Shown here piece by piece: positions 8,764 to 35,152 of a stretch of 64,000 bases of DNA. A program made the translations under genes and the position numbers. The notes beneath the pieces are model-generated. The model was not told the origin of the DNA. It did no database searches and worked only from the letters and a program-made list of their open reading frames with translations. Source of the stretch: Ignavibacteriota bacterium (GTDB lineage Bacteria > Bacteroidota > Ignavibacteria > UBA10030 > UBA6906); contig CAVPCZ010000012.1 in NCBI GenBank assembly GCA_963702445.1, positions 193,199 to 257,198 of the forward strand. The letters run 5' to 3'. Within the stretch, counting starts at the first letter, position 1. The number at the start of each line of letters is the position of its first letter.

Positions 8764-9228
8764 CTACTGCACCATGATGGTGGGACTCACCTCGACAATC
8801 GAGGCGATGGAATTCGCCACGAGGCAATGCTTCTCCGCCTCGCGCAGTATATCATGGACCTCCGATTCTGCGACCGAGCTGCAAACGGCGATGGTCGGGA
8901 AGATGACAATACGCGTGAACCGGTAGTCACCCTCGACATACTCCAGAACGCCGTTTGCATGACTGCGGTAACTCAGTATGGAGATGTTCCGCCTCTCTGC
9001 AAACGCCAGGAAGGTGTTCATGTGGCACATCTCCACCGACCCCACGAACATCTCTTCCGGTGTCCAGGCGTTTCGTTCGCCTTTGAACTCGGGCGGACTG
9101 GATATCCGGATGGTGGGTTTTCCTTCGGAGGAAAGTGTCCCGGACCGTCCTTCGATCCACACCGTGCTGGTCTTGTACGTGAAGGACTTGGTCCGGAGAG
9201 CTGTCTGTCGGGTTGTTTCCATGGTCAT
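8764..9228 (-). CDS. OsmC/Ohr-family peroxiredoxin-like protein
   Basis: The 154-aa size and pattern match the OsmC family (PEEMFVGSVEMCHMNTF ... EKHCLVANS, the two conserved Cys regions). ATGA overlap with the leuD-like stop. Confidence 0.7.
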   Translation of the reverse strand: MTMETTRQTALRTKSFTYKTSTVWIEGRSGTLSSEGKPTIRISSPPEFKGERNAWTPEEMFVGSVEMCHMNTFLAFAERRNISILSYRSHANGVLEYVEGDYRFTRIVIFPTIAVCSSVAESEVHDILREAEKHCLVANSIASIVEVSPTIMVQ

Positions 9229-14875: not shown

Positions 14876-15427
14876 TCAGGCCATTGCCGGCGACCCGGCC
14901 AGCTCGATACCTCTCCGCAACGCCTGTTCATTGAGGGGAAGCAGGTGATGGTACCGTTCGGGGAGCACTTTGTGCATCGCCTTCATGATGGAGTCGATAT
15001 CCACCACGTGCGTACGTTCAATGAAGGCGCCCAGCACGATCATATTCAGGACTTTGGTATTCTTCATTTTCACCGCTTCTTCACCCGCGGCGATCGGGAC
15101 AATCCGTATGTCCGTACGGGTGGGCGGCGCGATGATGCTCGTGGAATCGTACAGCAGGACCCCGCCGGGCTTCACCGCTTTTTCGAACTTCTCCAGCGAG
15201 GGCTGGTTCAGCGCGATCACCGTGTCGAAGACCGTCACAATCGGCGAGCTGATGCGGGAGTCCGAAACAATGACGATGCAATTGGCCGTGCCCCCCCGCA
15301 TTTCTGGTCCGTACGACGGCATCCAGGTGACTTCCTTCTTCTCAATCATGCCGGCGTATCCCAGAGCCATCCCCATGGAGAGGACCCCCTGTCCGCCAAA
15401 CCCGGCGATCAAAAGTTCATGCGTCAT
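14876..15427 (-). CDS. 2-oxoacid:ferredoxin oxidoreductase, gamma subunit
   Basis: The N-terminus LLIAGFGGQGVLSMG and the ~180-aa size are typical of Kor/Por/Vor gamma subunits. Confidence 0.88.
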   Translation of the reverse strand: MTHELLIAGFGGQGVLSMGMALGYAGMIEKKEVTWMPSYGPEMRGGTANCIVIVSDSRISSPIVTVFDTVIALNQPSLEKFEKAVKPGGVLLYDSTSIIAPPTRTDIRIVPIAAGEEAVKMKNTKVLNMIVLGAFIERTHVVDIDSIMKAMHKVLPERYHHLLPLNEQALRRGIELAGSPAMA

Positions 15428-15471
15428 GATGTTGTCCTTGCCATTCGTCGTTCAGCGGTGATGATCCGTGC

Positions 15472-16257
15472 TTATTTTGGCGTGCGGAGATCACCGGTCG
15501 GGTAGAGCGGCAACATATTCTCGACGAGCCACTTGTTCGACTGTACCGGCGTCATTTTCCATCCGGAGGGGCAGTTGGACACCACCTCCACGAAACATGT
15601 TCCTTTGTGTTCTTTCTGGTACTGGAACGATTTCGTAATCGCCTTCTTCAGCTGGCGCACCGCGTTGGGCGTGTGGACCGTCTGGCGTGTCACGTAGGCC
15701 ACTCCCGGCAGCAGGGCGATCATGTCGGCGATCTTCAGGGGGAACCCCGCCGTTTCCACAGTGCGCCCTTCGGGTGACGTGGACGTCTTCATCCCCAGCA
15801 GGCTGGTGGGCGCCATCTGTCCGCCGGTCATGCCGTAGATGCCATTGTTGATGAACAGCATGAGGATGTTTTCCCCGCGATTGCAGGTGTGGATGGTTTC
15901 GGCGGTCCCTATCGCGGCGAGATCACCGTCACCCTGATAGGAAAAGACATACCGGTCCGGCAGGAGACGTTTCACGGCGGTGGCCACCGCGCTGGCGCGC
16001 CCGTGGGCGGCTTCCTGCATGTCAATGTTCATATAGTGATAGGCAAACACGGAGCAGCCGACAGGTGCGACACCGATGGTGCGCTCCGCGATCTGCAGTT
16101 CGTCGAGCACTTCCATAAGCACGCGGTGGACGACGCTGTGTCCGCACCCCGGACAGTAGTGAAAGCGCGCATCGGTCAGCGTGTCGGGTCTTTCGTACAC
16201 ACATTCCATCGCTTCCGTCTCACCTGCGGCCGGTTCCTGAACGAGTTCCTGTGCCAT
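15472..16257 (-). CDS. 2-oxoacid:ferredoxin oxidoreductase, beta (TPP-binding) subunit
   Basis: YCPGCGHS and the TPP motif SYQGDGDLAAIG...NNGIYGMTGGQ. The ATG at 16257 lies immediately after the alpha-subunit stop. Confidence 0.9.
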   Translation of the reverse strand: MAQELVQEPAAGETEAMECVYERPDTLTDARFHYCPGCGHSVVHRVLMEVLDELQIAERTIGVAPVGCSVFAYHYMNIDMQEAAHGRASAVATAVKRLLPDRYVFSYQGDGDLAAIGTAETIHTCNRGENILMLFINNGIYGMTGGQMAPTSLLGMKTSTSPEGRTVETAGFPLKIADMIALLPGVAYVTRQTVHTPNAVRQLKKAITKSFQYQKEHKGTCFVEVVSNCPSGWKMTPVQSNKWLVENMLPLYPTGDLRTPK

Positions 16258-16258
16258 G

Positions 16259-17353
16259 TCAGTTCGCCTCCACGGGGTGTTGCACACTGCGTATCGCCAG
16301 CCGGTCGAGGGCCGTCACCACTTCCTCGGGGGATGGGATGACGCCCCCCATACGGCCGGTAAAATGCACCGGAGCGCGTCCTTCAACGGCGAGACGGACA
16401 TCCTCCACCATCTGACCCGCATTCATTTCCACCACGAGCACACCGCGGAGCCGGCCGGCGAGTGCGCGCAGCACATCGGACGGATAGGGCCAGAGCGTGA
16501 TCGGACGAAGGAGGCCGACTTTCTTCCCCCCGGCGCGGGCCAGCTCCACAGCGCGGTGGGCAATGCGCGCGGCAAGCCCGAATGCGACGATCAGGTATTC
16601 CGCATCGTCGGCTTCAACGAGTTCATACCGCACCTCGCGTGCCGCGATCGTGCGGAATTTCTCCTGGAGCCTGAGGTTGACCTGTTCCATCTGTTCGGCC
16701 AGCATATGCAGCGAGGTGATAACATTCGGCGCGCGGTCCTTCGGTTTGCCGGTGGTCGCCCAGGGTTTGGGCGGAATATGGTCCGCCGGTGTGTAGTCGT
16801 GGTATTCGACCTTTTCCATCATCTGTCCCAGAGCGCCGTCGGAGAGTATCAGGACAGGCGTGCGATACCGGTCGGCCAGATCAAATCCATCAAAGACAAA
16901 ATCCGCCATTTCCTGCACACTGGAGGGCGCAAGCACCACGAGATTATAGTCACCGTGGCCGCCTCCCTTGACGGCCTGAAAATAATCGCCCTGCGAAGAC
17001 TGGATGGTGCCGAGTCCGGGTCCGCCGCGGCTCACGTTCACCAGCAGACAGGGCACCTCCGCGGCGGCGATGTAGGAGATCCCTTCCTGCATAAGGCTGA
17101 ACCCGGGACTGGAGGAAGAGGTCATCACGCGTGCACCGGCGCCGCCGGCGCCGTACACCATATTGATGGACGCCACTTCACTTTCCGCCTGCAGGACAAT
17201 CATCCCCCGCTTTCGTCCCTCGTCGGTGAGGTACTCGAGAATTTCGGATTGTGGCGTGATGGGATAGCCAAAATAGGCCTGGCAGCCGGCGCGGATTGCC
17301 GCTTCCGCCAGCGCCTCGTTGCCTTTCATGAGTCTGATGTCACCCACGGTCAT
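16259..17353 (-). CDS. 2-oxoacid:ferredoxin oxidoreductase, alpha subunit
   Basis: [30 protein letters not shown] is the conserved N-terminus of OFOR alpha subunits. Confidence 0.9.
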
Positions 17354-17652
17354 TTCCTTTCATCGGCAATGGTCACCGTAATGTTCTCAGTCACATTGGT
17401 GATACGCGCGACGGGCACCTTTTCCTTCTTCTTTGTTTCGCGGTACACGGTAATGACGGCATCCGGACACACCAGCGCACAGTTGGTGCACCCCGTGCAG
17501 TTATCCTGGATCAGGACCGCATAGTGGTAGCCCTGCGCGTTGATCTTCGGCGATAATTGCAGACTCCCCTGCGGGCACGCTTCGATGCAGAGCTCACAGC
17601 CTTTGCAGGTATCAACATCGAACTTCACTTTTCCTTTGGCCATCGACTCCAC
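17350..17652 (-). CDS. 2-oxoacid:ferredoxin oxidoreductase, delta subunit (2x[4Fe-4S] ferredoxin)
   Basis: Two CxxCxxCxxxCP motifs ([12 protein letters not shown] and [12 protein letters not shown]). ATGA overlap with the alpha subunit. Confidence 0.85.
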
Positions 17653-17697
17653 TCCTCGCTGTCTATGTCATGGGGACGGCACCGGCGGAGCCCGCCC

Positions 17698-19026
17698 TTA
17701 CCGGGTGCTGTCGAGTGAATGTTGAAGATCGGTGATGATGTCCTCCGGCTTCTCCAGTCCGATGGCAAGCCGCACACCGCCGGGATCCATGCCGTTGGCG
17801 ACCTGTTCTTCGGCGGGAATTGCCGAGTGGGTCATTGACCCGGGATGTTCAATCAGGGTGCGGATATTGCCGAGGCTCACCGCGAGGGTCACGCAATACG
17901 CTTCCTGCGCGATGTGATTGATGAAGCGTTCGGCCCGTTTGAGTGCATCCGGCGGGTTGGCGCCCTTCATCACAAAATAGATCATCGAACCGGGCGCAAA
18001 GTTGCCGTCGAAGTCCCGCATCTGCCGCCGGGCAAGTTCGGCCTGGGGGAACGACGGAAGACCCGGGTAGCAGACGGATTCGATTTCCGGACGCTGCTGC
18101 AGAAATTCCGCGACCACCTGTGCGGTCACCTGCATCTGGCGCATGCGGGTAGCAAGCGAGGGAAGACCCACCACGAGGACGGGCCATGCGCTCTTTGCCG
18201 ACAGCACGCCGCCAAAGTCCTTCCGGTACAGCATCAGCTGATCGTAGCTCCACCGCGGGCCGATCACCACCCCGCCGATATCCGTTCCGAAGCCGCCGAT
18301 GGCTTTGGTGAGTGAATGCACCACAAAGTCGATGCCCAGAGAAATCGGCCGCTGGCAGAAGGGCGTCGCGAAGGTGCTGTCGACCACCGTGTAGATGCGG
18401 TCTTCGGGAGCGCGCCCGGCATTCGCCTGTAGGGCGATATCCGCAATCCGCTTCAGATCGGTCAGGCCCATGGTGGGATTGACCGGCGATTCCATATAGA
18501 GAACGCGCGTGTTGCGGGTGATGGCTTTTGCCACCTCATCCGGCTTGAGAAAGTCGACGAACTTCACGCCGATTTTGAGGCGTGGATACCAGTTCATCAG
18601 CAGCGAATAGGTGCAACCGTACAGCGTGCGGTGCGCCACGATTTCACTTCCGGTCCCGGTAAGGGTTCCCAGTACACCGGAGATGGCGGCCATACCGCTG
18701 GCAAACGCCACGGCAATATCGCCCCCCTCGGCGTACGCCAGGTTCTCCTCGAGCATGTCCTTGTTCGGTTCCCCCAGACGGTCATAGATATAGATGGGGG
18801 CCTTCGTCTTGACATTCACCTCGTCGCTGCGATGCGCGAACTCCGTGAAACCCTGTGCCCCCCGCTGGGCGCTGTCAAGCCGGAATGTTGCCGAGGCGGA
18901 AATCGGCGGCAAGAGATGATGACTGTAATCCCAGAGAGGGTCGTCCATCCGGCCGTAGATCAGGTGGGCTTCCACCGAATGCCGGTGTGCTTCCTTCTTG
19001 GGCGGTGTGGTGTGTTCTGGCTTCAT
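17698..19026 (-). CDS. Cys/Met-metabolism PLP-dependent enzyme (methionine gamma-lyase, cystathionine or O-acylhomoserine sulfhydrylase family)
   Basis: Family pattern YxRxxNP-like segments and the PLP-lysine motif HSLTKAIGGFGTDIGG. Substrate not assignable from the sequence. Confidence 0.78.
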   Translation of the reverse strand: MKPEHTTPPKKEAHRHSVEAHLIYGRMDDPLWDYSHHLLPPISASATFRLDSAQRGAQGFTEFAHRSDEVNVKTKAPIYIYDRLGEPNKDMLEENLAYAEGGDIAVAFASGMAAISGVLGTLTGTGSEIVAHRTLYGCTYSLLMNWYPRLKIGVKFVDFLKPDEVAKAITRNTRVLYMESPVNPTMGLTDLKRIADIALQANAGRAPEDRIYTVVDSTFATPFCQRPISLGIDFVVHSLTKAIGGFGTDIGGVVIGPRWSYDQLMLYRKDFGGVLSAKSAWPVLVVGLPSLATRMRQMQVTAQVVAEFLQQRPEIESVCYPGLPSFPQAELARRQMRDFDGNFAPGSMIYFVMKGANPPDALKRAERFINHIAQEAYCVTLAVSLGNIRTLIEHPGSMTHSAIPAEEQVANGMDPGGVRLAIGLEKPEDIITDLQHSLDSTR

Positions 19027-20096
19027 CGGATATACTCTCCATGCTCCTGGCGCGGTAAGAGAAATTCATTGATGGGACGACGCGGAGTCGGCACCGGCTC
19101 CGCCAGTGAATACCCGATTCTCAGCAACAGTTGGGGCCAGACATGCAACCCGAGAAGTCTCTTGAGTTCAAGGCGCAGGGCGGGAACCTGCACAGGCATG
19201 TTGAAGTAGCTGTGCTGGATCCCTTCCGCGGTCAGCAGAAGGAGCATCCGTTCCAGGAATTCCCCCGCCGAAAGCCAGTGGGGAACGGTGTCCTCGCCGG
19301 CAATGGTGATCAGGCCGGGAGCATCAACGCAGAGGTTCTTGTCATGTGCGGCACGCAGTTTTCCCGGATCAATCATGCGGGTCGCCCGGGGCACGAACGG
19401 AGCCACGTTTTCATCAATACCCGCCACTTCTCCCCTCATGCCGTCGGGCTGAGCGCTGTCGCCGGACCGGAGCCACTCCGCCACATCGCGGCGGTACGCC
19501 GGATCCGCCAGAAGCAGGCGATCGGCCTGTGCCACCAGGCCGGCAACGGCATCGTTCAATTTTCCGTCGGTGGACGCAGACACGACGGTCTCCCCGGAGA
19601 CGGCCAGATCCTGCACCTGACGGATGACCGACGAGGGGACCCGGGAAACCAGAAAAGGTTTCCTGTTCGTACGCCTCCGGGTCAACTGGGGAAAGAGGGC
19701 GCTCAGTCCGGCACCGCCGTGGACCGATGCTTCGCCCGGCAGGAGGTTGACGAACGCCAGGGGTTCTTCGCTCGATCCGCTCTGGTTGTACACCACCTCG
19801 CATCCGAAGTCGAAAAAGGCGGCGGCAACCCGGAGATTCATGACCGCGGCGCCGATGCTCATCAGGAGCTCACGCCCGGCAGGATCGGCAACCGGCAGAC
19901 GGCGCGTATAATCCCCGTAGAGTTCCACACCCTCAACACTGACCCGGAAATGCCAGGGTTGTGTGTTGAAGGTGGACGGCGCAAGCACGGCGTAACGGAG
20001 CAGAAACAGAAACTGCTCCTCCACGCCCCCCTCCGCCGGAAACTGTCCCGCTGACGGCAACGTGTACGGTCTGCCCGTGGTAACCACCGGTTTCAC
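19023..20096 (-). CDS. Acg-type tandem nitroreductase-fold protein
   Basis: The 357-aa size, RYAVLAPSTFNTQPWHFRV and a second nitroreductase-like half match the Acg/putative NAD(P)H nitroreductase family. Confidence 0.6.
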   Translation of the reverse strand: MKPVVTTGRPYTLPSAGQFPAEGGVEEQFLFLLRYAVLAPSTFNTQPWHFRVSVEGVELYGDYTRRLPVADPAGRELLMSIGAAVMNLRVAAAFFDFGCEVVYNQSGSSEEPLAFVNLLPGEASVHGGAGLSALFPQLTRRRTNRKPFLVSRVPSSVIRQVQDLAVSGETVVSASTDGKLNDAVAGLVAQADRLLLADPAYRRDVAEWLRSGDSAQPDGMRGEVAGIDENVAPFVPRATRMIDPGKLRAAHDKNLCVDAPGLITIAGEDTVPHWLSAGEFLERMLLLLTAEGIQHSYFNMPVQVPALRLELKRLLGLHVWPQLLLRIGYSLAEPVPTPRRPINEFLLPRQEHGEYIR

Positions 20097-20350
20097 TTCA
20101 GAACCCGGACGAGATCAGGGTTATCCGTGGCTATGGCGTCCACCGGACAGTCTTCGGCCGCTTCACGCATGTACTCCTCTTCTTCCGCTGTTTGCGGCTG
20201 GCGGCTGACAAAGTACCTGTTCGACGATTTCTCAAAATCGAAATTGTCCGGCGCAATGGAGGCGCAGTAGGCGCATCCGTCGCACTCTTCGGTGGTAAAG
20301 AATTTGCCCGAGACGTTTTGCGGCAGCCGTCGTGTCGGTTCGGCGCTCAT
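20093..20350 (-). CDS. Small single-cluster ferredoxin
   Basis: CDGCAYCASIAP ... DCPVDAI pattern. The ATG at 20350 overlaps the haem-lyase stop by ATGA (the ORF-track start at 20365 is also possible). Confidence 0.6.
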   Translation of the reverse strand: MSAEPTRRLPQNVSGKFFTTEECDGCAYCASIAPDNFDFEKSSNRYFVSRQPQTAEEEEYMREAAEDCPVDAIATDNPDLVRVLK

Positions 20351-22581
20351 TGTTTCTCCCTCCATCGTTTCACTATTGCCAGGACAAAGCCCGTCATCAT
20401 CAACACCGTTCCACCCCAGAGGAGGTTGATAAACGGTTTCACACTCGCTTCCACCATCAATATCTCCGGGCTCGGGGTCCCGCCGCCGGCCTGCGTGAGG
20501 CCGAGCACGATGCTCGAGGACGTCGAACCCATGCCCGCGTTCACCCTGAGCAGTCGCACCTCCCCGCCCAGCAGCCGTGAGGGAAGTGCCTCCTGCGCCG
20601 GCGTTCCATCGGCCGCGTAGGTCATCAGCGGGGCCAGCTGTTCCCGTTCATTATCCTTCTGCACGTCGATCACCGCGGCGATGCGCATACCTCCCGCCCC
20701 CATTGCCGCACCCGGGGTCCCGTGGGAACCCATATCGAACCGGTTGAAGGTGATCTGTGCTCCGCCCGCTTCCGACGCGACGCCCTTCACCAGGTTGAGT
20801 TCGACCGTCCGGCCTCCCTCCCTGGGAGGCTCAAGAGACATCGGGGAGATATAGAAATCCCTGAAGGCAAAGGACGAGATGTCCGGATTCCTCATGATCC
20901 CCTGTGAGCCCGCCTCAAACATGACCGGGGACAGCGTGAAGACCTTCCCGTTTCCCTCCGCCCGGACACGGAACACATACTTGTCGTCCGCCGTGACCGA
21001 AAACCCTTCATACGTCAGCGTGTGTCCGAGAGCCGGCACGGGTTGTTCCCGGGGGAGCTGGAACTGCTCCGTCGAACTGTACTTCCCCGTGGAAACAACG
21101 CCGAGCAGAAAGAGTGCGAGACCCATATGGGCCACTTTGCCGCCGTGCAGCAGGATGCCGCCTTTGATGTTGGTGAGCACGATATCCACGTTGACGAACA
21201 GCGCAAACACGGCCGTGAAGACCAGTGCCGCAGTGGAACCCTCGCGCATCCCGGCGACATAGAGAATAAGGGTCACCGCAAACGCCGCGATGAGAGCCCG
21301 GAGGGATTGGCGCGAGGTGAGCCGGACATCCTGTTCTTCCCATTGCGTGTACAGGCTGATGCCGATGAGCAGCGCCATCATGATGACAAGGGGAAGATTG
21401 GTGGCGTCGTAGAATGCGGGTTCGACCCGGGTGGTGGAGAATATCGGCAGGCTGGTCCCGAAAAGGATGACAACCGCGCTGAGCAGGAGGGCAACCGCCC
21501 CGGCGGCAAGCGCAGTTTCGCGCGTGAGCCAGCCGCTTGTTGCACCGTCCGCCGCGAGGGATTTCCATCGGAAGGCCAGCAGGCCGAATCCGGAAAGTGC
21601 AATAAGAGAGAGAAATGCGAGCAGGAGCCAGTACACGGCGGAACCGGGATCGGTGAAGGCATGCACGGAGGCGTCGCCGAGTATGCCGCTGCGGGTCAGA
21701 AACGTGCTATAGATCACCAGGAAGAACGAGACAATGGCGAGTGTCACGTTTGTGCGCGGGTATCTGCCGGTACGGCGTTCCACAAGCATCGTGTGCACCA
21801 GCGCGATGCCTGTGAGCCAGGGAATGAGCGAGGAGTTTTCCACCGGATCCCAGCCCCAGTAACCGCCCCACCCCAGAACACCATACGCCCAGTATGCGCC
21901 GAGCATGATGCCCAGTCCGAGCACAGTCACCGCGAACAGGATCCAGGGCAGACCTTGCTGTGAAAGAAGTGTCCGGCGACCCGTCCAGAGGCCCGCCAGC
22001 GCCTGGCTGAAGGGCGCGGCCATTGCGGCAAATCCCAGAAAGAGGACCGGGGGATGAATCACCATCCAGAAATTCTGCAGGAGAGGATTCAGCCCGCGTC
22101 CGTCGGGGGGGATCTGTCCGGGAGGAATCTGCGGCCACATCTCCCACACCGGGCGGAAGGGGGACTTCGCAACGACAATGAGCAGAAGCATCGACTGGAC
22201 AAACAGAAACACGGTCATCACCCCGGATTCGCTGCCATGCTTCCGCCCGTACGAAGCGAGCAGGAGAGCAATCAGTGCCGAGCAGAGCGCCCAGAAGAGG
22301 AAGCTTCCCTCCTGGCCTGCATAAAAGCTGGACAGGAGGAAGTGCAGCGGCAGCGTGCTGTCGCTGTACCCGTAGACGTAGCCGTTGGTGAAGTCATTTC
22401 GCAAAAGGAGCGCCGTCAACAACGCCGATGCAAGCAGGATGAGAAGTGAACTGAGGTACAGGAGGGCTCGCGGTTGCGAAAGACGACCCCCTTTTGTGGA
22501 GGCAGCGCGAAGGTACCCGAGCGCTGAGAAGAGGGATGCAAAGAGCGCAAGGATGATGAACCAGTGTCCAAGAACAGTCAT
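20347..22581 (-). CDS. CcmF/NrfE-family cytochrome c haem lyase (744 aa, polytopic)
   Basis: WWD domain GAYWAYGVLGWGGYWGWDPVENSSLIPWL matches the CcmF/NrfE signature (WAYxELGWGGxWxWDPVEN). Many TM segments and a CcmF-like C-terminal domain. Confidence 0.85.
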   Translation of the reverse strand: MTVLGHWFIILALFASLFSALGYLRAASTKGGRLSQPRALLYLSSLLILLASALLTALLLRNDFTNGYVYGYSDSTLPLHFLLSSFYAGQEGSFLFWALCSALIALLLASYGRKHGSESGVMTVFLFVQSMLLLIVVAKSPFRPVWEMWPQIPPGQIPPDGRGLNPLLQNFWMVIHPPVLFLGFAAMAAPFSQALAGLWTGRRTLLSQQGLPWILFAVTVLGLGIMLGAYWAYGVLGWGGYWGWDPVENSSLIPWLTGIALVHTMLVERRTGRYPRTNVTLAIVSFFLVIYSTFLTRSGILGDASVHAFTDPGSAVYWLLLAFLSLIALSGFGLLAFRWKSLAADGATSGWLTRETALAAGAVALLLSAVVILFGTSLPIFSTTRVEPAFYDATNLPLVIMMALLIGISLYTQWEEQDVRLTSRQSLRALIAAFAVTLILYVAGMREGSTAALVFTAVFALFVNVDIVLTNIKGGILLHGGKVAHMGLALFLLGVVSTGKYSSTEQFQLPREQPVPALGHTLTYEGFSVTADDKYVFRVRAEGNGKVFTLSPVMFEAGSQGIMRNPDISSFAFRDFYISPMSLEPPREGGRTVELNLVKGVASEAGGAQITFNRFDMGSHGTPGAAMGAGGMRIAAVIDVQKDNEREQLAPLMTYAADGTPAQEALPSRLLGGEVRLLRVNAGMGSTSSSIVLGLTQAGGGTPSPEILMVEASVKPFINLLWGGTVLMMTGFVLAIVKRWREKQ

Positions 22582-22616: not shown

Positions 22617-22631
22617 TCAACATGCGTGCCA
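22617..22631 (-). promoter_or_regulatory. Sigma-54-type -24/-12 promoter candidate upstream of the haem-lyase gene
   Basis: The minus strand reads TGGCACGCATGTTGA. The -24 TGGCACG is perfect with correct N4 spacing, and the -12 is TTGA instead of TTGC. A GGAG sits 7 nt before the ATG at 22581. Confidence 0.5.
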
Positions 22632-22710
22632 TGGAAATCCCCTTGAAAACCACGAAAATCACGTTCTGGAAGCCGTTTTAAGGGTTTCCTATCGTGTAAG
22701 AACCAGGGTG

Positions 22711-22728
22711 TTTCCAATACCTGGGAAT
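22711..22728. promoter_or_regulatory. Inverted repeat TTTCC-N8-GGAAT, candidate enhancer (UAS) for the sigma-54 activator
   Basis: tttcc aatacctg ggaat, centred ~90 bp upstream of the -24 GG at 22629-22630. The same half-sites, spacing and distance occur at 35233-35250. Confidence 0.45.
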
Positions 22729-22743: not shown

Positions 22744-22780
22744 CAAAAAAAGCTCCCGGCCCTTTTAGGGGGGGCCGGGA
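22744..22780 (-). terminator. Rho-independent terminator ending the cytochrome operon
   Basis: On the minus strand, CCCGGCCC-cccctaaaa-GGGCCGGG is followed by AGCTTTTTTTG. It lies 63 nt downstream of the lipoprotein cytochrome stop at 22843. Confidence 0.65.
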
Positions 22781-22842: not shown

Positions 22843-24246
22843 CTAGAAGCTCCGCTCGGTATTGAAGGCGTTTACTTTGCCGTTGATGTGTTTGGTCTTG
22901 TCGATGATATTGCCGGAGCCGTTGACGACTCCGGGGTGACAGTTGACGCAGCTGGTGAGCGTCGCGGATGTATGGCCGGCCGGAGGCAGGCCGTGACAGC
23001 TTCCGCATGCGCCGTCGGTGCTTCCGCCGTTCCAGGATGGTGCGAAGTTCGTCCCCGCCATCACGCTATCCGTGAAGGCGAACGAGAAGGAAGATGTGGC
23101 GCGCGAAAGACGCCAGGCCCCATGGCAGTATGTATTGCTGCACTTGAATGTTGTGGTGCCGTAGGCCGGAACCGGCAGGTAGTTCCCGCCGGTTCCGGTG
23201 GCAAGACGCGCCAGCGTATCCCGGAACACGACTTCGGCCGGCAATTGTGTGTCAACGTGCCCGGGGGGGAACGTCTGGGCGGGCACCAGATGGCATTCGG
23301 CACATTTCACGGATTTGCCCAGGTTTCCGGAGACAAGATGCTTCTGATGCGCCCCGATGGCGTGAACGACGGGCGGATTGTCCTGTGAATCCCCCAGGAC
23401 AGTCTTGGGCGGTGCGGCGGAGAGAGCATCGCCCGAGGCGGCGCGGAACTGACCGTGACACGTGTTACAGGCTTCAGGGGATTTCGGCGTGCCGCCGGCA
23501 TCGGCATGGCAGGGAACAGTGGAACAGCTCACATTCACCACCGGACCGCCGGTATACGATGCGCCGTGACAGGTTTTGCATTGCGCCAGGGGATACCCCT
23601 TACTCAGCAGATAGCCGGGATGTCCTGACGATGCCTGGAAGACGGTGTGCGGATAGGAAGCATGGCAGGTGAAGCATGATACACCGCTTGTTCCACCGGT
23701 ATAATTCTCACCATGGCACGCGGCGCATTCCGTCAGCTGCCAGTTCTTTCCTTTCAGGTAGCGGCCGTGAGACGCCGTTGATGCGGGATTGCCCCATCCG
23801 GTGCGGTGGGGATACGAAGCATGGCAGGTGTAGCAGGAAACACCGCTTGTGCCGCCCGAGAAATCCGCGCCGTGACAGGCGGCGCAATCGTCCAGCGTCC
23901 CCATGTCCAGGCGCAGGAACTTCCCATGGAACGTCGTCGCGGCTGTATCCACCCAGCCGGGTTTGTGCGGATAGGACGTGTGACAGCCGTAGCACGAAAC
24001 GCCGCTCGTGCCTCCCGAATAGGCCTTCGAATGGCACGACACGCAGTCCGTGTTCTCGTACTGCGGTCCCGACAGTACGGTGCCGTGAAAGGCCGGAGAG
24101 GCGGGATCATTCCAGCCGGTCTCATGAATGCCCTGCGGGGCCATGGGAGCGGGAAGATCTTGTTTCAGCTCGCTGCAGGCCCCGAGCAGCAATGCCGTCG
24201 TGAGCAGAGCGAACGTCGCCGGAAATCGATGAAAGTGTACGCGCAT
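22843..24246 (-). CDS. Multihaem c-type cytochrome lipoprotein, 13 haem motifs (11 CxxCH + 2 CxxxxCH)
   Basis: Lipobox ALLLGAC at residues 18-24. CxxCH x11, plus CSTVPCH (23506-23526) and CSNTYCH (23122-23142), both verified from the DNA. The C-terminal CxxxxCH...CxxCH pairing resembles the Geobacter-type C4xCH/C2xCH domain. Confidence 0.88.
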   Translation of the reverse strand: MRVHFHRFPATFALLTTALLLGACSELKQDLPAPMAPQGIHETGWNDPASPAFHGTVLSGPQYENTDCVSCHSKAYSGGTSGVSCYGCHTSYPHKPGWVDTAATTFHGKFLRLDMGTLDDCAACHGADFSGGTSGVSCYTCHASYPHRTGWGNPASTASHGRYLKGKNWQLTECAACHGENYTGGTSGVSCFTCHASYPHTVFQASSGHPGYLLSKGYPLAQCKTCHGASYTGGPVVNVSCSTVPCHADAGGTPKSPEACNTCHGQFRAASGDALSAAPPKTVLGDSQDNPPVVHAIGAHQKHLVSGNLGKSVKCAECHLVPAQTFPPGHVDTQLPAEVVFRDTLARLATGTGGNYLPVPAYGTTTFKCSNTYCHGAWRLSRATSSFSFAFTDSVMAGTNFAPSWNGGSTDGACGSCHGLPPAGHTSATLTSCVNCHPGVVNGSGNIIDKTKHINGKVNAFNTERSF

Positions 24247-24262: not shown

Positions 24263-25465
24263 TTAGCCGTGACAGTAACCGCAGAAGTTTCTTCCCTTCA
24301 CGCCATCGGGTCGGGCATTCAGGTCTGTGTGACAGTTGAAGCATGTGGCCCCGGCACTGGTATGCCAGGGTCCGTGCTCATCCTTCAAAAAAGAACCGGG
24401 ATGTGTGCGCGGGTCGGTTCCCCGTATGCCGTCGGCGTCAACATGACAGGTGACGCATACCGGATCGTTGCCCTGCGTGTCGTGGCAGCTCACACAGCTC
24501 TCGATATCGCGCCGCGCGAGGGTTGCATGGGTACCGCCGCCGCTGCCGACACCGATGGTGGCAAACCCCGCCCCCAGGTGCCAGGCCGGCGTGAACGCCT
24601 GCGAGGTGATGTTGTCGCCCGTCGCATGACATTCCGCGCAGAATTCCTGCTGCGAATGGCAGCCGTAGCAGTCGGCGCTCTTCGACTTCGCATCGATGCC
24701 ATGGGTGAACCGGTAGTTCATGTCGTGTGCGAGCTGCAGGCTCATCTGTTGCGAGCCGTTTCCCGGAAACGTCCGCGGGGTGGGATCGGCCATCAGGGCG
24801 CCCTGGCCGAACTGCGCCAGCGCGGCGGGGGCATGACACTCGGCACAGAACGTCTGTGTGTGGCAGGTGGAGCAGCTGGTTTCCAGTGCTCCGACCCGGG
24901 TCAGCTGCTTGTGCTCCTTTTTGAAGTTTCCCACCAGGTGGTCGGGTGGAACGAGCTGCACAAAGCTGGTATGACACGCCTCACACGCGTTGGTCACCTT
25001 CCGGTCGTTGTGGCAGGTGTTGCAGGTCGCCATCGAAGGCATGTGTTTCGGTGCAGCGTAATCGGCCTCTTCGAGTCCGGCATGGCAGGTCGTGCACTGG
25101 ACGTCTTTCTGTGAAACATGCCGTTCATGGGAGAAGAGCAGCTCGCGCACGGCGGGAGCGGCAGGCTGGATATTGTCGGGATCCAGATGGCAGTAGCTGC
25201 ACTGGTTGCCCAGCTGCTCCTCGTGGCAGGACTGACAGTTGTCGTGGCCCGCACGGAGATTGTCGGACGCCAGTTTGCTTGTGGCTGCCGGGTGGCAGTT
25301 TTCGCACGCCACGCCGGCGTCGGCGATATGCGTCTTGTGGGAGAACTTCAGCTGCTTGTTGTCGGCCCGGTCGGGCCACCCGTTCCGGAGGGCGGGTTTG
25401 TGGGCGACCGCGGTGATCAGCCCGGCGGCAACAATGAGCAGGAAAACCAGATAACGGCGGATCAT
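24263..25465 (-). CDS. Periplasmic 14-haem c-type cytochrome
   Basis: N-terminal signal or anchor (MIRRYLVFLLIVAAGLITAVA) and 14 CxxCH motifs in 400 aa. The start overlaps the beta-barrel stop by ATGA (25462-25465). Confidence 0.9.
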   Translation of the reverse strand: MIRRYLVFLLIVAAGLITAVAHKPALRNGWPDRADNKQLKFSHKTHIADAGVACENCHPAATSKLASDNLRAGHDNCQSCHEEQLGNQCSYCHLDPDNIQPAAPAVRELLFSHERHVSQKDVQCTTCHAGLEEADYAAPKHMPSMATCNTCHNDRKVTNACEACHTSFVQLVPPDHLVGNFKKEHKQLTRVGALETSCSTCHTQTFCAECHAPAALAQFGQGALMADPTPRTFPGNGSQQMSLQLAHDMNYRFTHGIDAKSKSADCYGCHSQQEFCAECHATGDNITSQAFTPAWHLGAGFATIGVGSGGGTHATLARRDIESCVSCHDTQGNDPVCVTCHVDADGIRGTDPRTHPGSFLKDEHGPWHTSAGATCFNCHTDLNARPDGVKGRNFCGYCHG

Positions 25466-26772
25466 TGTGCGCCCTCCCCTTTGAAGATGGACAGCCGTTG
25501 CGCGAACCAGTACATCAGCTTCACCTGCAGGCGCAGATCACGCTGGGAGATTTTGTTCGTCAACCATTGCCCCTGCACGTCGAAGGAGAACGCCTGTGTG
25601 GGGCGGACGATCGCGCCGAGCAGCACCGACAGGGCGTTATCGCGTGAGCTTTCTTTGCTCAGGCGGTAGGATGCATACGAAAGCCCGGCGGTCGGGATCA
25701 CGGTCCGGCCGAAGAACGGGTACGATCCCTGGAGGCTGACCGACTGCAATTCTCCTGCATAGCCGTCGCTGCCGGTATACGCGAGGCTGCCGTAGCCGTT
25801 GTTCACGCCCACGCTCCAGCGCGTGCTCTGCTCGTCGGTATAGCTGACGCTCGCCACCCGGGCGAAGGCGCGGAGGAGGGGGGTAAAACCGTACTCCACG
25901 CCTCCCTCGATTTCATTCACCGCATTGGCGACAAACGCCGAGAATATGGAGTTGTACGAGAGTCGCGGCGCGCGGTGAATGTAGTCCGCGGTCAGGGACA
26001 GCGCCTCGGTCACGTACACCCGCGCACCGCCCTGTGCCCGTGCGGTGCGGGATCCGGCGAAGTCATAATCGTACCTTCCGTACGCGGAGAAGCGGCCGGC
26101 ATATTCGTACCGTGCTTCCGCACTGGCCACTTCCTGGGCCGGCGAATCGTTTGCGATATAGTACGACACCGGGGCAAACGAGGTATCGCGCGCGCGGACG
26201 GTCCAGTACGGGTCTCGCTCCTCGTGCCGGTTCATGTAGCTCAGGCCGATGCGTGCGCCCGGCAGGAGTGTTGTCACCACCTGCCCGCCGAAGTGGTAGT
26301 TGTCGTGCAGGTTTTCCCGGACACCCGTGAAGTCCGGGCTGACCGTTGAGCCGGCAAAACCCGTCACCGTCACCTTCTGCTGGAGAAATCGTGCGCGGGC
26401 GAGAAATCCGTCTATCGTCCCGACTCCTGCGCCTGCATACACCGCCTGCCGTCCGACGTTCAGGTCAAGTACCTTGCCGATGTTGGCCCAGGTCAGGTAG
26501 AGGTTATAGAAGCGCACGCGCCCGACGTCGCCGAAGTCCCCGGCCAGATTGGCCGCCCCCTGGATGAAGGTGTTCACGGAAACGTCGCCCTGCGTCATGG
26601 AAAGCTGGATATTCTGGAAGGCGCGAATGCGCTGGTGGGACACGCCCACCGTATCGAACTGTTCCCAGCCGTAGAAGGATGTCGCCAGACGTCCCGTCAC
26701 CAGCTGCGCGGGCGCGCCGGCGACGCAGACCAGAATCAGCAGGGCGAGGGGGAGAGAGCGTGGTGTCTTCAT
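25462..26772 (-). CDS. Predicted outer-membrane beta-barrel (porin-like) protein of a porin-cytochrome module
   Basis: Signal peptide MKTPRSLPLALLILVCVAGAPAQ from ATG 26772. The remaining ~410 aa show alternating hydrophobic/polar strands rich in Y/G/S/T/R with no Cys and no haem motif, and an aromatic-rich C-terminal region (LMYWF). Barrel call by composition and pattern only. Confidence 0.65.
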   Translation of the reverse strand: MKTPRSLPLALLILVCVAGAPAQLVTGRLATSFYGWEQFDTVGVSHQRIRAFQNIQLSMTQGDVSVNTFIQGAANLAGDFGDVGRVRFYNLYLTWANIGKVLDLNVGRQAVYAGAGVGTIDGFLARARFLQQKVTVTGFAGSTVSPDFTGVRENLHDNYHFGGQVVTTLLPGARIGLSYMNRHEERDPYWTVRARDTSFAPVSYYIANDSPAQEVASAEARYEYAGRFSAYGRYDYDFAGSRTARAQGGARVYVTEALSLTADYIHRAPRLSYNSIFSAFVANAVNEIEGGVEYGFTPLLRAFARVASVSYTDEQSTRWSVGVNNGYGSLAYTGSDGYAGELQSVSLQGSYPFFGRTVIPTAGLSYASYRLSKESSRDNALSVLLGAIVRPTQAFSFDVQGQWLTNKISQRDLRLQVKLMYWFAQRLSIFKGEGAQ

Positions 26773-26816
26773 ACACAGTTCCCTTTTGTTGCCGCCTCTT
26801 CGAAAGGTGTACCCGT

Positions 26817-28316
26817 TCAGAGACCGGAATGGCATTCGACGCAGTTGGTCTCCTGCCATGCATCGCCGATATCCTCGGGGTGCTGGAACGGAAGTCCGGC
26901 CACGGTGAGCGTCTGCGGCACGGGATCCGTCCCCTGATACAGAATCGTATGACAGCTGTTACAGTCCTTGCTGATGCGCTTCCCGTCCGCGCTCACATGT
27001 TTCCCGTCATGGCAGCGAAAACAGCCGAGGTCTGTCATATGGCCGATATGGCTCGGGTAGGCGCTCCAGCGTACATTCATGAGGGGAAAGAAGTTCTTCC
27101 GGTATTGCGCAACAAGCTCCTGTCCGGCCGCGAGAATGCGCGCTCCTTCGGTGGCGGCCACCTGCGGATACTCGCGTTCATAGTAGGCGCGCAGCAGGTG
27201 CGGTATGCTGTCCGCCGCTTCCCCGGCTGTGGTATAGGGACGTTTCAGCAGATCCATTGCTGTTTCACGGACACGCGGCAGCGAGGGGCTTATCGTTCCG
27301 CGCGTCAGGCTCCGGTCCACGATGCGGGCGGGGGGAAGATAAATGTGGGATGGGCGGTTGTGGCAATCCATGCAATCCATGCGCGACCACTCCCCACTCC
27401 GCAGGCCGGCGGTGTCCGCCGGCATTTCTTCGGCGGCATACTCGGTGACCGTACCCGTGCGTTGATCTCTGACGCGAACCAGGGGGATCGACTGACGGAG
27501 GGAATCCACGGCAACGTACGTCACTTCATTGGCGGGGTTCACGTGCCAGTGGATGCCGTTGGCGGGTCCCCGTTCTTCATTCCCGCCGCCGATTTTCATC
27601 AGCAGCGCGAGAGTCCACCGGGTGTTCGCTTCATCGGACTTGAAATAGGTGTTGACGTATTTCTTTTCCCCGGCGAAATGGGACGGCCAGTGGCACTGCT
27701 CACAGGTTTCCCGGGCGGGGCGCAGGTTCTTGATGGGGGTAGGGATCGGCCGGGGGTACACGTTGGCAAGCACGGCGTACACCTGGTACGCCCCGGAAAG
27801 TTTGGACTTGACATACCATCCGGCACCCGAGCCGACGTGGCAGTCAACACACTTGACCCGTGCGTGCGGCGAGTTCAGGTAGGCCGTATACTCCGGTTCC
27901 ATAACATCATGACAGGTTGCGCCGCAGAAGGGCACCGATTCCGTCCACTCAAACGTCCGGTAACTCCCGTACGCCGTGAAGAGCAGGACAACGGCCGTCA
28001 CCCCGGCGAAGAGCGCAAGTGCGGACCGGTGATGCGGCACGCCGAGGTCGATCGTGAGGACCTTTTTACTCGCCGGCCGGCCGGCACGCAGACGCCGCCG
28101 CTCCCGTACCGCTCCCACAGGGATCATCAGCAGCCCCAGCAGCAACGGCACCGGCAGGGCGATATACGAGATGATCCCGATGTACGCCGGCGCGTTTTCC
28201 TGCACCATCTCCACCATGGTGAGAAACAGAATCGTCAGAAGGCACGCGCTCGCCAGGGCTGCCCCCACAATACTTATGGGGTTGTAGAAAATCTCCGGGA
28301 GCTTTCTTTTTTTCAT
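26817..28316 (-). CDS. Membrane-anchored heptahaem c-type cytochrome (NapC/NirT-like region; ImcH-like architecture)
   Basis: Three N-terminal hydrophobic segments are followed by FCGATCHDVM (CxxxCH, 27909-27926, checked in the DNA) and six CxxCH motifs. The 499-aa length and layout match the description of the Geobacter inner-membrane quinol oxidase ImcH. Confidence 0.75.
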   Translation of the reverse strand: MKKRKLPEIFYNPISIVGAALASACLLTILFLTMVEMVQENAPAYIGIISYIALPVPLLLGLLMIPVGAVRERRRLRAGRPASKKVLTIDLGVPHHRSALALFAGVTAVVLLFTAYGSYRTFEWTESVPFCGATCHDVMEPEYTAYLNSPHARVKCVDCHVGSGAGWYVKSKLSGAYQVYAVLANVYPRPIPTPIKNLRPARETCEQCHWPSHFAGEKKYVNTYFKSDEANTRWTLALLMKIGGGNEERGPANGIHWHVNPANEVTYVAVDSLRQSIPLVRVRDQRTGTVTEYAAEEMPADTAGLRSGEWSRMDCMDCHNRPSHIYLPPARIVDRSLTRGTISPSLPRVRETAMDLLKRPYTTAGEAADSIPHLLRAYYEREYPQVAATEGARILAAGQELVAQYRKNFFPLMNVRWSAYPSHIGHMTDLGCFRCHDGKHVSADGKRISKDCNSCHTILYQGTDPVPQTLTVAGLPFQHPEDIGDAWQETNCVECHSGL

Positions 28317-34173: not shown

Positions 34174-34656
34174 TTAGGAAAGGCCTGCGAGGAGATCTTC
34201 CACCCTTTTCGAGATTTGTGCGATCTCAAAGGGCTTATAAAAGACGGAATCTACATGCTCACGGATGGCCCGGTCGAGATTCACCTCCCTGGAATTATAG
34301 ACATACAGGAGGATAATCGGCAGTGTGTGGTTGGCCCCCCGCAACCCATCCAGCCGCTCGATGAGCTTCTCCGAGGGAACCGCATCCACCATGACAAGGT
34401 TTGCGGAATAGTCCGCCGCAAGGCGGTCGAGCATTCCCAGATTCGTTGTCGTGATGACATTATACCTGTCCTGAAACAGCATGGAGAGACTGAAGCAGAA
34501 GTTCAGGTCAGGGCTGTACAGCAGGATCGTCTTCTTGTTTTCACCGACATCCGTATCGGGTGCCCGTGCGTCCTTCCGGTGTTCGGCTTCGCCGTGGTGT
34601 GTTTTCACCGTATATCCTCGGTTCGTGTCACCGCAGATGGAGTTCCTTTTCGACAT
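34174..34656 (-). CDS. Single-domain receiver (CheY-like) protein with a degenerate acidic pocket
   Basis: KKTILLYSPD ... ANLVMVDA ... PIILLYVY ... YKPF follows the REC beta1/beta3/beta4/beta5 pattern, but SPD replaces DD and Tyr replaces the beta4 Ser/Thr. Alternative GTG start at 34608 (GAGGA 6 nt upstream) would remove the 29-nt overlap with uspA. Confidence 0.6.
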   Translation of the reverse strand: MSKRNSICGDTNRGYTVKTHHGEAEHRKDARAPDTDVGENKKTILLYSPDLNFCFSLSMLFQDRYNVITTTNLGMLDRLAADYSANLVMVDAVPSEKLIERLDGLRGANHTLPIILLYVYNSREVNLDRAIREHVDSVFYKPFEIAQISKRVEDLLAGLS

Positions 34657-35104
34657 CCTCTTTTTGAAGGATGTTTTCGCGGAACGGGTGCGGCTTGACG
34701 GTCAACACGGGGATTCCGGAAGATCGGACGATCCGTTCGGCGACGCTGCCCAGAAGCATGTGGCGCAACCCCGTCCGGCCATGCGTGGCAATCACAATCA
34801 GATCGATTCCCTCCTGCTCGGCGAACCGGCGGATCTCCTCCGCGGCTTCCCCTTTTTTCACGACCAGTGCAATACGTGTTTCCGCCGGCACATGGGCATG
34901 CGCGAATTCTTCGAGACTTCTTCTTGCCTCTTCCTCATTCCTCGGATGACCCTCTCTTCCGAGGAACCCTTCCCGGCCATCGACCACATGAAGCAGGAAC
35001 AGGCGGGATGTATACAGGGTGCCGAAGGACGTGGCGTACTCCACGGCTGCCAGCGAGAAGTCAGAAAGGTCGGTGGTGACGAGTATTTTCTTCAGGAAGA
35101 CCAT
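34628..35104 (-). CDS. Universal stress protein (UspA family)
   Basis: KKILVTTDLSDFS ... LFLLHVV ... IDLIVIATHGRTGLRHMLLGSVAERIVRSSGIPVLTV (ATP-binding G-2x-G-9x-G(S/T) type motif). Confidence 0.88.
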   Translation of the reverse strand: MVFLKKILVTTDLSDFSLAAVEYATSFGTLYTSRLFLLHVVDGREGFLGREGHPRNEEEARRSLEEFAHAHVPAETRIALVVKKGEAAEEIRRFAEQEGIDLIVIATHGRTGLRHMLLGSVAERIVRSSGIPVLTVKPHPFRENILQKEDVEKELHLR

Positions 35105-35137: not shown

Positions 35138-35152
35138 TCAAGAGTTGTGCCA
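35138..35152 (-). promoter_or_regulatory. Sigma-54-type -24/-12 promoter candidate upstream of uspA
   Basis: The minus strand reads TGGCACAACTCTTGA: TGGCAC, correct spacing, and a -12 of TTGA as at 22617-22631. It lies ~35 nt upstream of the uspA ATG, with GGGAG as a possible SD. Confidence 0.5.

Follow-up and report, generated by a model that had tools for sequence, protein, structure and literature searches.

The gene ccmF2 lies on a 64-kb stretch of DNA from an Ignavibacteriota bacterium (hereafter the window, which corresponds to C12:193199-257198 of the source genome G000, 5.18 Mb in 28 contigs and 89% complete) and encodes a second member of the CcmF family of haem lyases, a paralogue with intact catalytic residues whose promoter and gene order are conserved among related genomes. 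On balance, we favour the view that CcmF2, in an organism with a System I* pathway, would work as a second synthase, expressed together with the cytochromes of the outer-membrane electron-export gene cluster beside it and with a branch consisting of a ferredoxin and a 2-oxoacid:ferredoxin oxidoreductase (OFOR), and maturing these cytochromes. The comparison on which this view is based covered about 30 related genomes, the relatives being long-read metagenome-assembled genomes (MAGs).

The CcmF2 protein and the general ccm system

20347..22581, minus strand: ccmF2, encoding a 744-aa CcmF-family haem lyase paralogue of clade F2 (Pfam PF01578 and PF16327)

The first-pass annotation of the window had assigned to this 744-aa product an unambiguous CcmF/NrfE WWD signature, and the open reading frame (ORF), Pfam domains, histidine ligands and fold all agree with that assignment. 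A Pfam search gives matches to Cytochrom_C_asm (2.7e-30) and CcmF_C (7.3e-22), and the WWD motif, WGGYWGWDPVEN, spans residues 238-249. When CcmF2 is aligned with 47 relatives and with E. coli CcmF and NrfE, its residues H176, H263, H307 and H485 coincide with E. coli H173, H261, H303 and H491; these four histidines, two of them periplasmic (P-His1/2) and two of them transmembrane ligands of the b-haem, are 100% conserved in all three ignavibacterial CcmF clades described below (F1, F2 and F3). Likewise, W231, D245 and E248 coincide with E. coli W229, D243 and E246, mutants of which have their synthase activity abolished or severely impaired (PMC10746174), and are invariant across 47 F2 sequences. 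Hydropathy indicates about 15 hydrophobic or membrane segments, and the AlphaFold model (mean predicted local distance difference test score, pLDDT, of 83) has the Thermus thermophilus CcmF structure 6ZMQ as its sole significant match in the PDB (Foldseek E 2.6e-19; TM-score of the model 0.74 on the target; E 2.7e-48 for the sequence). Each feature of the CcmF/NrfE family that sequence can test, namely the periplasmic WWD domain (W..W.WDP.E), the four histidines and a polytopic fold of about 13-15 transmembrane helices, is present.

The fold, the histidine ligands and the WWD domain match those of the Thermus enzyme, from which CcmF2 differs in its periplasmic all-beta region. This region (residues 503-716) precedes the last helix and, at about 215 residues, exceeds its counterparts in E. 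coli and Thermus CcmF by roughly 100; it contains no cysteines. The long form is common to many homologues of 720-800 aa, whereas part of it is gone from the F1 copies of the source genus and of genome G018 (654 and 697 aa). An internal duplication was considered as its source and discarded, since BLASTP of its two halves found no match. One could speculate that the long beta-region might stand in for the missing CcmH.

Searches of the 64-kb window by tblastn found no homologues of CcmA, B, C or E, and CcmH was not found genome-wide, so that the first-pass statement that the window holds no ccmABCDE or ccmH genes stands. Matches to PF01578 occur at four places in the genome: ccmF2, a second CcmF on contig C16, CcmC on the same contig, and a HemX-like gene on C8. 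The C16 locus, the single ccmABCDEF cluster of the genome, has the order ccmA-B-C-(D)-E-F and its CcmF belongs to clade F1; a housekeeping ccmF therefore exists, and ccmF2 is not the sole CcmF of the genome. The encoded CcmE ends in HATEVLTKCPSKY (...LTKCPSKY), with a Cys-type CXXXY rather than an HXXXY motif, in both the source genome and G001, a genome of the same genus. Between ccmC and ccmE lies a conserved ORF of 45-50 aa with a single helix (…FLSQN.LY.VL.I…W.G.Y.YL.R…; 45 aa in the C16 cluster, 8865-9020 in locus L038, with equivalents in L040, L043 and L045), which is probably CcmD, a gene easily missed by gene callers. The CcmH/NrfF family PF03918 gave no match in the source genome at E<=0.01, with positive controls and with the genome 89% complete, and neither did ResB/CcsB (PF05140). 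The absence of ResB rules out System II as the general pathway, the third PF01578 protein, on C8, being HemX-like and encoded beside hemA.

With a Cys-type CcmE and no CcmH found, the system of the source genome is a System I*, the variant of Desulfovibrio desulfuricans and archaea in which CcmE carries CXXXY and CcmH is lacking (Allen et al. 2006; PMC3601427, PMC9084895). The host shares with that system the ...LTKCPSKY end of CcmE, a CcmD-like ORF, the lack of CcmH and a CcmF that would work without it, and differs from it in possessing two full-length CcmF paralogues under different regulation. The archaeal ‘CcmF1/CcmF2’ are, unlike the paralogues discussed here, two halves of one split enzyme. 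In such a setting CcmF2 would be a working CcmF-type holocytochrome c synthase with b-haem, a lineage-specific paralogue of CcmF1 that attaches haem to apocytochromes on the periplasmic face. Because it is without haem-delivery genes of its own, it would have to draw on the same holo-CcmE pool as CcmF1.

Relative to G001, in which the ccm genes are intact, single-base indels, about a dozen in all, interrupt each of the C16 genes ccmB, C, E and F1. Such damage could be taken to mean that the C16 cluster is decaying and that CcmF2 is the only working lyase, but we regard this as highly improbable: the single-copy ccmC and ccmE would be needed by CcmF2 as well, and their loss would abolish the cytochromes carrying all 205 CXXCH sites of the genome. 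Since xseA, a DUF gene and, on C8, hemA are split in the same way, since the single-copy ccmC and ccmE would be lost too, and since the G001 copies are intact, the frame-breaking indels are probably local long-read assembly errors, the simpler explanation among long-read MAGs. The split genes lie at C16:317300-322000 (L006; the ccm genes, xseA and the DUF gene) and C8:64086-65407 (L007; hemA), and automatic annotation would be led to label all of them pseudogenes. ORF coverage, as a gauge of local assembly quality, is uninformative at 60% GC.

Phylogeny and distribution of the CcmF paralogues

A maximum likelihood tree (‘quick’ search), built from 48 CcmFs of ignavibacterial origin and rooted on E. 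coli CcmF plus NrfE, separates three clades. Clade F1 (23 rows, support 100) is monophyletic and lies entirely inside ccmABCDEF clusters; clade F2, equally monophyletic (20 rows including the ccmF2 of the window, Shimodaira-Hasegawa-like approximate likelihood ratio test, SH-aLRT, 99), consists of stand-alone genes only, from four families; and the five rows of clade F3 (support 90) are all stand-alone genes next to other multihaem clusters. F2 is the sister clade of F1 (support 98). With a ‘quick’ search and long outgroup branches, the rooting of the tree is less secure than the clades. The placement relative to the CcmF and NrfE clades that the first-pass annotation had called for thus yields a separate monophyletic paralogue clade but no affinity to NrfE: the two E. 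coli proteins, NrfE and CcmF, cluster together and apart from all three local clades, from which it follows that F2 arose by a duplication within the lineage and is not NrfE. The family models point the same way, as CcmF2 scores 260-265 bits against the NCBIfam CcmF and NrfE models, so far under their trusted cut-offs (569 and 927) that it is a divergent family member and no NrfE equivalog. Orthology to NrfE is accordingly rejected by the tree and by the individual scores, 265.6 bits where the cut-off is 927.3 and 193.8 where it is 394 (TIGR03145 / PRK10369).

Across the same genome pairs, F2 sequences are 49-61% identical and F1 sequences 60-68%; F2 diverges faster than F1. Only four alignment columns, F96, G234, V235 and L410 in CcmF2, discriminate F1 from F2, and the E. 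coli residues equivalent to G234 and V235, Y232 and E233, tolerate alanine (PMC10746174).

Most genomes of the family have two CcmFs, and the pair persists in almost all of its 18 genera and in three further families. Two genomes have F1 only (G010 and G023), and in three (G019, G026 and G027) F3 is the sole CcmF, the ccm cluster there being ccmABCE without F. The F3-only loci (L076 in G019, L077 in G027 and L078 in G026; L046, L047 and L065) come from two or three sister families, and their ccmF lies a few kb from CbcL-like multihaem genes behind a sigma-54-like promoter. Judging from these gene sets, the stand-alone type of CcmF is the general lyase in the F3-only families.

This distribution bears on the idea that CcmF2 is an equivalent duplicate, interchangeable with F1, without client preference and kept by drift or regulatory convenience. 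The identical catalytic residues and the small number of discriminating columns are what one would expect of such a duplicate, and lineages evidently live with one CcmF of either kind (F1 or F3). Yet we consider the idea rather unlikely, given the retention of both copies across so many genera, the conservation of the F2 promoter and neighbourhood, and the occurrence in two clades, F2 and F3, of a stand-alone, sigma-54-driven CcmF by multihaem clusters, a recurrence that argues for selection on the arrangement.

Promoter and gene neighbourhood of ccmF2

The regulatory elements around ccmF2 and uspA are the following.

22617..22631, minus strand: sigma-54-type -24/-12 promoter, TGGCACGCATGTTGA, 35 nt before the ccmF2 ATG
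22673..22727, minus strand: enhancer-like motifs, namely a TTCC-N8-GGAA palindrome (22712-22727) and AAAACGG (22673-22679)
22745..22779, minus strand: terminator-like hairpin, CCCGGCCC-N9-GGGCCGGG with T7 behind it, closely following the lipoprotein cytochrome gene
35138-35152, minus strand: sigma-54 promoter of uspA, heading the cytochrome cluster

The hairpin, with its loop of 9, was read from the sequence and was not listed by a consensus terminator scan. Together with ccmF2's own promoter it occupies the 261-nt spacer between the lipoprotein cytochrome gene and ccmF2, so that the earlier description of ccmF2 as lying immediately after an operon with one CxxxCH and two CxxxxCH sites is right as to the sites but passes over this separation.

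The 15-mer of the ccmF2 promoter recurs, with at most two changes, at -50..-54 in 12 of 12 orthologous loci with diverged flanks. In a loose search for the canonical sigma-54 consensus TGGCAC-N5-TTGCW (at most two mismatches), matches in one window are no rarer than chance, 23 against 29 expected; TGGCAC-N5-TTG[AC] occurs at only 34 sites genome-wide, several of them before flagellar, chaperone, Hsp20 and cytochrome genes. The upstream regions of ccmF2 and uspA have the TTCC-N8-GGAA palindrome in common and place two further motifs at like spacing from TGGCAC, GGAAAC at -84 and -85 and AAAACGG at -48 and -49, respectively. The orthologous ccmF2 loci have a recurring TTGGAA motif about 85 nt ahead of the promoter. 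The shared promoter and enhancer layout of ccmF2 and the uspA unit that the first-pass annotation had proposed is thereby upheld. In G024, the barrel operon and ccmF2 point away from each other, each driven by a copy of the identical sequence TGGCACATAGATTGC, one per strand, and the F3 genes have TGGCAT-N5-TTGA at -45..-62.

From this likeness we infer that ccmF2 is co-regulated with the uspA/cytochrome cluster. The gene would be transcribed from its own sigma-54 promoter, with an activator site that matches that of uspA in sequence and spacing, and the PAS kinase and NtrC-type activator encoded beside uspA could form one sigma-54 two-component switch for both units; given the matching upstream site, ccmF2 is most likely induced together with the cytochrome cluster. 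The co-induced load would comprise multihaem cytochromes with about 70 haem sites and the ferredoxin/2-oxoacid oxidoreductase branch, and CcmF2 would most likely be the cluster's own maturation enzyme, providing added capacity and perhaps a preference for large or lipoprotein cytochromes. The genes concerned are these.

14876-17652, minus strand: four-subunit OFOR, at the end of the downstream block 14876..20096
17698-19026, minus strand: Cys/Met pyridoxal phosphate (PLP) enzyme, joined to the Acg gene by a 4-nt overlap
19023-20096, minus strand: Acg-family flavin mononucleotide (FMN) protein, downstream of the ferredoxin
20093..20365, minus strand: small single-cluster [4Fe-4S] ferredoxin (Fer4_13, 7e-16), its start overlapping the ccmF2 stop
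22843-24246, minus strand: lipoprotein cytochrome (lipoMHC) with 11 CXXCH and 2 CX4CH sites, upstream, putative client
24263-25465, minus strand: 14-haem cytochrome, upstream, putative client
25462-26859, minus strand: beta-barrel, upstream of the 14-haem gene
26817-28316, minus strand: ImcH/NrfH-like protein with 6 CXXCH and 1 CX3CH sites, upstream, putative client
34628-35104, minus strand: uspA, head of the cytochrome cluster
35267-36730, minus strand: NtrC-type sigma-54 activator (Pfam), directly upstream of uspA
36624-38048, minus strand: PAS histidine kinase (Pfam), head of the cluster

Mapping of the window proteins by tblastn onto about 60 contexts from the related genomes recovers a conserved order, in which quinol-dehydrogenase-type cytochromes, a c554-like protein, the ImcH-like protein, the barrel, the 14-haem and the lipoprotein cytochrome precede ccmF2, and the ferredoxin, Acg, the PLP enzyme and OFOR follow it; the order from Acg to OFOR is kept in most family members. 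The lipoprotein cytochrome and ccmF2 are adjacent in 17 of the 21 F2-bearing genomes, across four families, and ccmF2 and the ferredoxin in 16 of 19 assessable ones. Each pair is also found without the third partner. The cluster and ccmF2 occur without the ferredoxin in G016, G013 and G025; ccmF2 and the ferredoxin occur without a porin-cytochrome cluster upstream in G011 and G006, and probably in G003 and G005 (1.6-1.9 kb upstream before the contig end); and in G028 (L088, C6 6616-7617) a ferredoxin homologue directly follows the lipoprotein cytochrome after a 28-nt gap, with no ccmF2 between them, which ties the small ferredoxin to the porin-cytochrome cluster in its own right. The three parts therefore act as one regulatory block, with ccmF2 exclusive to neither side. 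In family f4 (G029 and G021), the gap between the lipoprotein cytochrome and ccmF2 is only 37-66 nt, and no separate ccmF2 promoter was found in it.

An alternative reading of this block ties CcmF2 to the genes downstream: as the head of a sigma-54 operon ccmF2-fdx-acg-PLP-OFOR, it would have its b-haem or haem substrate reduced by the ferredoxin, or would have a role in redox or nitrosative stress. The overlap of the ccmF2 stop with the ferredoxin start, the 4-nt overlaps that link the next genes, and the persistence of the ccmF2-ferredoxin pair even where the porin-cytochrome cluster lies elsewhere all speak for it, as does G023, where a sigma-54 promoter precedes an Rrf2 regulator and a hemerythrin in the equivalent slot. 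The combination of a universal stress protein, an Acg-type protein and a ferredoxin resembles a hypoxia/nitric oxide (NO) regulon of the mycobacterial DosR type. Even so, we judge this alternative to be distinctly unlikely, because the ferredoxin is cytoplasmic and the CcmF active site periplasmic, with no second membrane-bridging cofactor evident; because three genomes keep the cluster with ccmF2 but not the ferredoxin, with Acg absent in G013 and G025 and 67 kb away in G016; and because in G028 the ferredoxin follows the cytochrome gene without any ccmF2.

The G023 locus itself (L092, C16 3051-7040), which has no ccmF2, carries after the lipoprotein cytochrome a sigma-54 promoter that drives genes for an Rrf2-family regulator, a hemerythrin-like protein and a membrane protein, with an NtrC-type activator encoded nearby. 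Its contents hint that the slot otherwise taken by ccmF2 houses redox- or NO-stress genes.

Several observations weigh against CcmF2 as the second synthase of the cytochrome cluster. With F1 as its only CcmF, G023 makes the same cytochrome set, so that an extra lyase is dispensable in at least one lineage. The ccmF2 reading frame is coupled to that of the ferredoxin and not to any cytochrome gene, a terminator-like hairpin stands between the cytochrome genes and ccmF2, and in G011 and G006 (probably also in G003 and G005) ccmF2 stays with the ferredoxin and not with the porin-cytochrome cluster. Finally, with just four columns separating F1 from F2, two of them at alanine-tolerant positions of the WWD domain, the alignment yielded no determinant of an F1/F2 specificity.

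A broader and more doubtful speculation is that Ignavibacteriota evolved ‘on-demand’ cytochrome c synthases at least twice (F2 and F3), as stand-alone CcmFs under sigma-54/enhancer control within an extracellular-electron-transfer regulon, which would be client-selective for very large or lipid-anchored multihaem cytochromes, or ferredoxin-fed. If this were true, extracellular respiration would be regulated at the haem-attachment step too, and not at the making of the apoproteins alone.

Atypical haem sites and comparison with known lyases

The atypical haem sites near ccmF2 are CGATCH in the ImcH/NrfH-like protein and CSTVPCH and CSNTYCH in the lipoprotein cytochrome; CxxCK or CX15CH sites are absent from the neighbouring cluster genes. 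The source genome as a whole has 27 ORFs with at least two CXXCH motifs, 205 sites in total, and four ORFs with atypical sites, two of which are far from ccmF2. One of these distant cytochromes (C3:439865-441352 and C16:214215-215804) carries CGSACH and the other CVQSGCH and CGSASCH, and TGGCACTTTCTTTGC lies 64 nt upstream of the start of the C3 gene.

These sites had led the first-pass annotation to propose a specialised lyase for Cx3CH and Cx4CH sites, that is, a motif-specific enzyme for sites that CcmF1 cannot handle, by analogy with NrfE and CxxCK. The proposal has some attraction: the neighbouring genes carry exactly such sites; the PF09698 domain (Cx4CH...CxxCH) is present roughly once in each genome and, in most genomes that have F2, next to ccmF2; F2 forms a distinct, faster-evolving clade; and G010, which has F1 only, is without PF09698, the ImcH-like protein and Acg as well as ccmF2. 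The genes lost in G010 are adjacent, however, and one deletion could explain their joint loss. G023, a genome that is 100% complete and has F1 only, retains the barrel, the 14-haem cytochrome, a lipoprotein cytochrome with CMSSGCH and CSNVYCH, and an ImcH-like protein with CGEMCH, and the same Cx3CH/Cx4CH sites are kept in the three genomes with F3 as sole CcmF (G019, G026 and G027). This persistence marks the atypical sites as orthologous features that are independent of the CcmF complement. Considering also the two distant cytochromes and the lack of NrfF/G-like partners nearby, we find the motif-specific reading unlikely, and the proposal is weakened to that extent. A strict requirement of F2 for Cx3CH/Cx4CH sites is correspondingly unlikely on the gene sets compared, while F2 may have a kinetic preference for them. 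The general Ccm system of E. coli reportedly matures CX3CH and CX4CH variants as well as Desulfovibrio cytochrome c3.

Returning to CcmF2 as a second synthase for the cluster, its closest parallels are the dedicated lyases NrfEFG of E. coli, for the CxxCK haem of NrfA, and SirEFG of Shewanella oneidensis, for the CX15CH haem of SirA (PMC6976685, PMC3601427). Like NrfE and SirE, it is an extra CcmF-family paralogue beside particular multihaem cytochromes that would rely on general CcmABCDE haem delivery. It differs in not being an orthologue, E. coli NrfE and CcmF lying outside the local clades; in lacking partners of the NrfF/NrfG type (CcmH/CcmI-like), its neighbours being a ferredoxin and a lipoprotein cytochrome; and in that the comparative data speak against an obligatory motif-specific role. 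NrfE as a model is therefore reduced to an analogy, with NrfF/NrfG-type partners not nearby, CcmH not found in the genome and NrfE itself outside the local clades. Of the wider comparison with dedicated lyases encoded beside their substrates, the coexistence of a second CcmF and the synteny of F2 with the cluster (17 of 21) hold up, but the atypical sites also occur without F2. CcmF2 could thus be seen as a further case of a known pattern, in which an extra lyase paralogue is encoded beside its clients. The same idea of lyase isoenzymes beside client cytochromes is embodied in CcsA1 and NrfI of Wolinella succinogenes, which are System II lyases (cited in PMC3601427) and belong to another maturation system, ResB/CcsB not having been found in the source genome.

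A literature search found no description of a CcmF paralogue from ignavibacteria; a single CcmF is named in the Melioribacter multi-omics paper, and none in the Pcc survey. Literature matches to ‘NrfE’ in Gallionellaceae were set aside, as they stem from the abbreviation NRFeOB.

Microbial metal respiration and electro-active biofilms depend on multihaem cytochrome conduits, whose heterologous production is often limited by haem attachment. A conserved second lyase co-regulated with a porin-cytochrome cluster would be a candidate maturation factor tuned to such clients, and the lineages with F1 only, F3 only, F1 and F2, or F1 and F3 constitute a natural experiment on the substrate range of CcmF paralogues. 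They also counsel caution, in that an atypical motif beside an extra lyase is by itself no proof of motif-specific maturation.

As a minor observation, contig C8 (L007) contains at 68229-70310 an ORF of 694 aa with about six tandem copies of a unit of about 24 residues, PPAVVPPAAAQRADISKPKESVSI.

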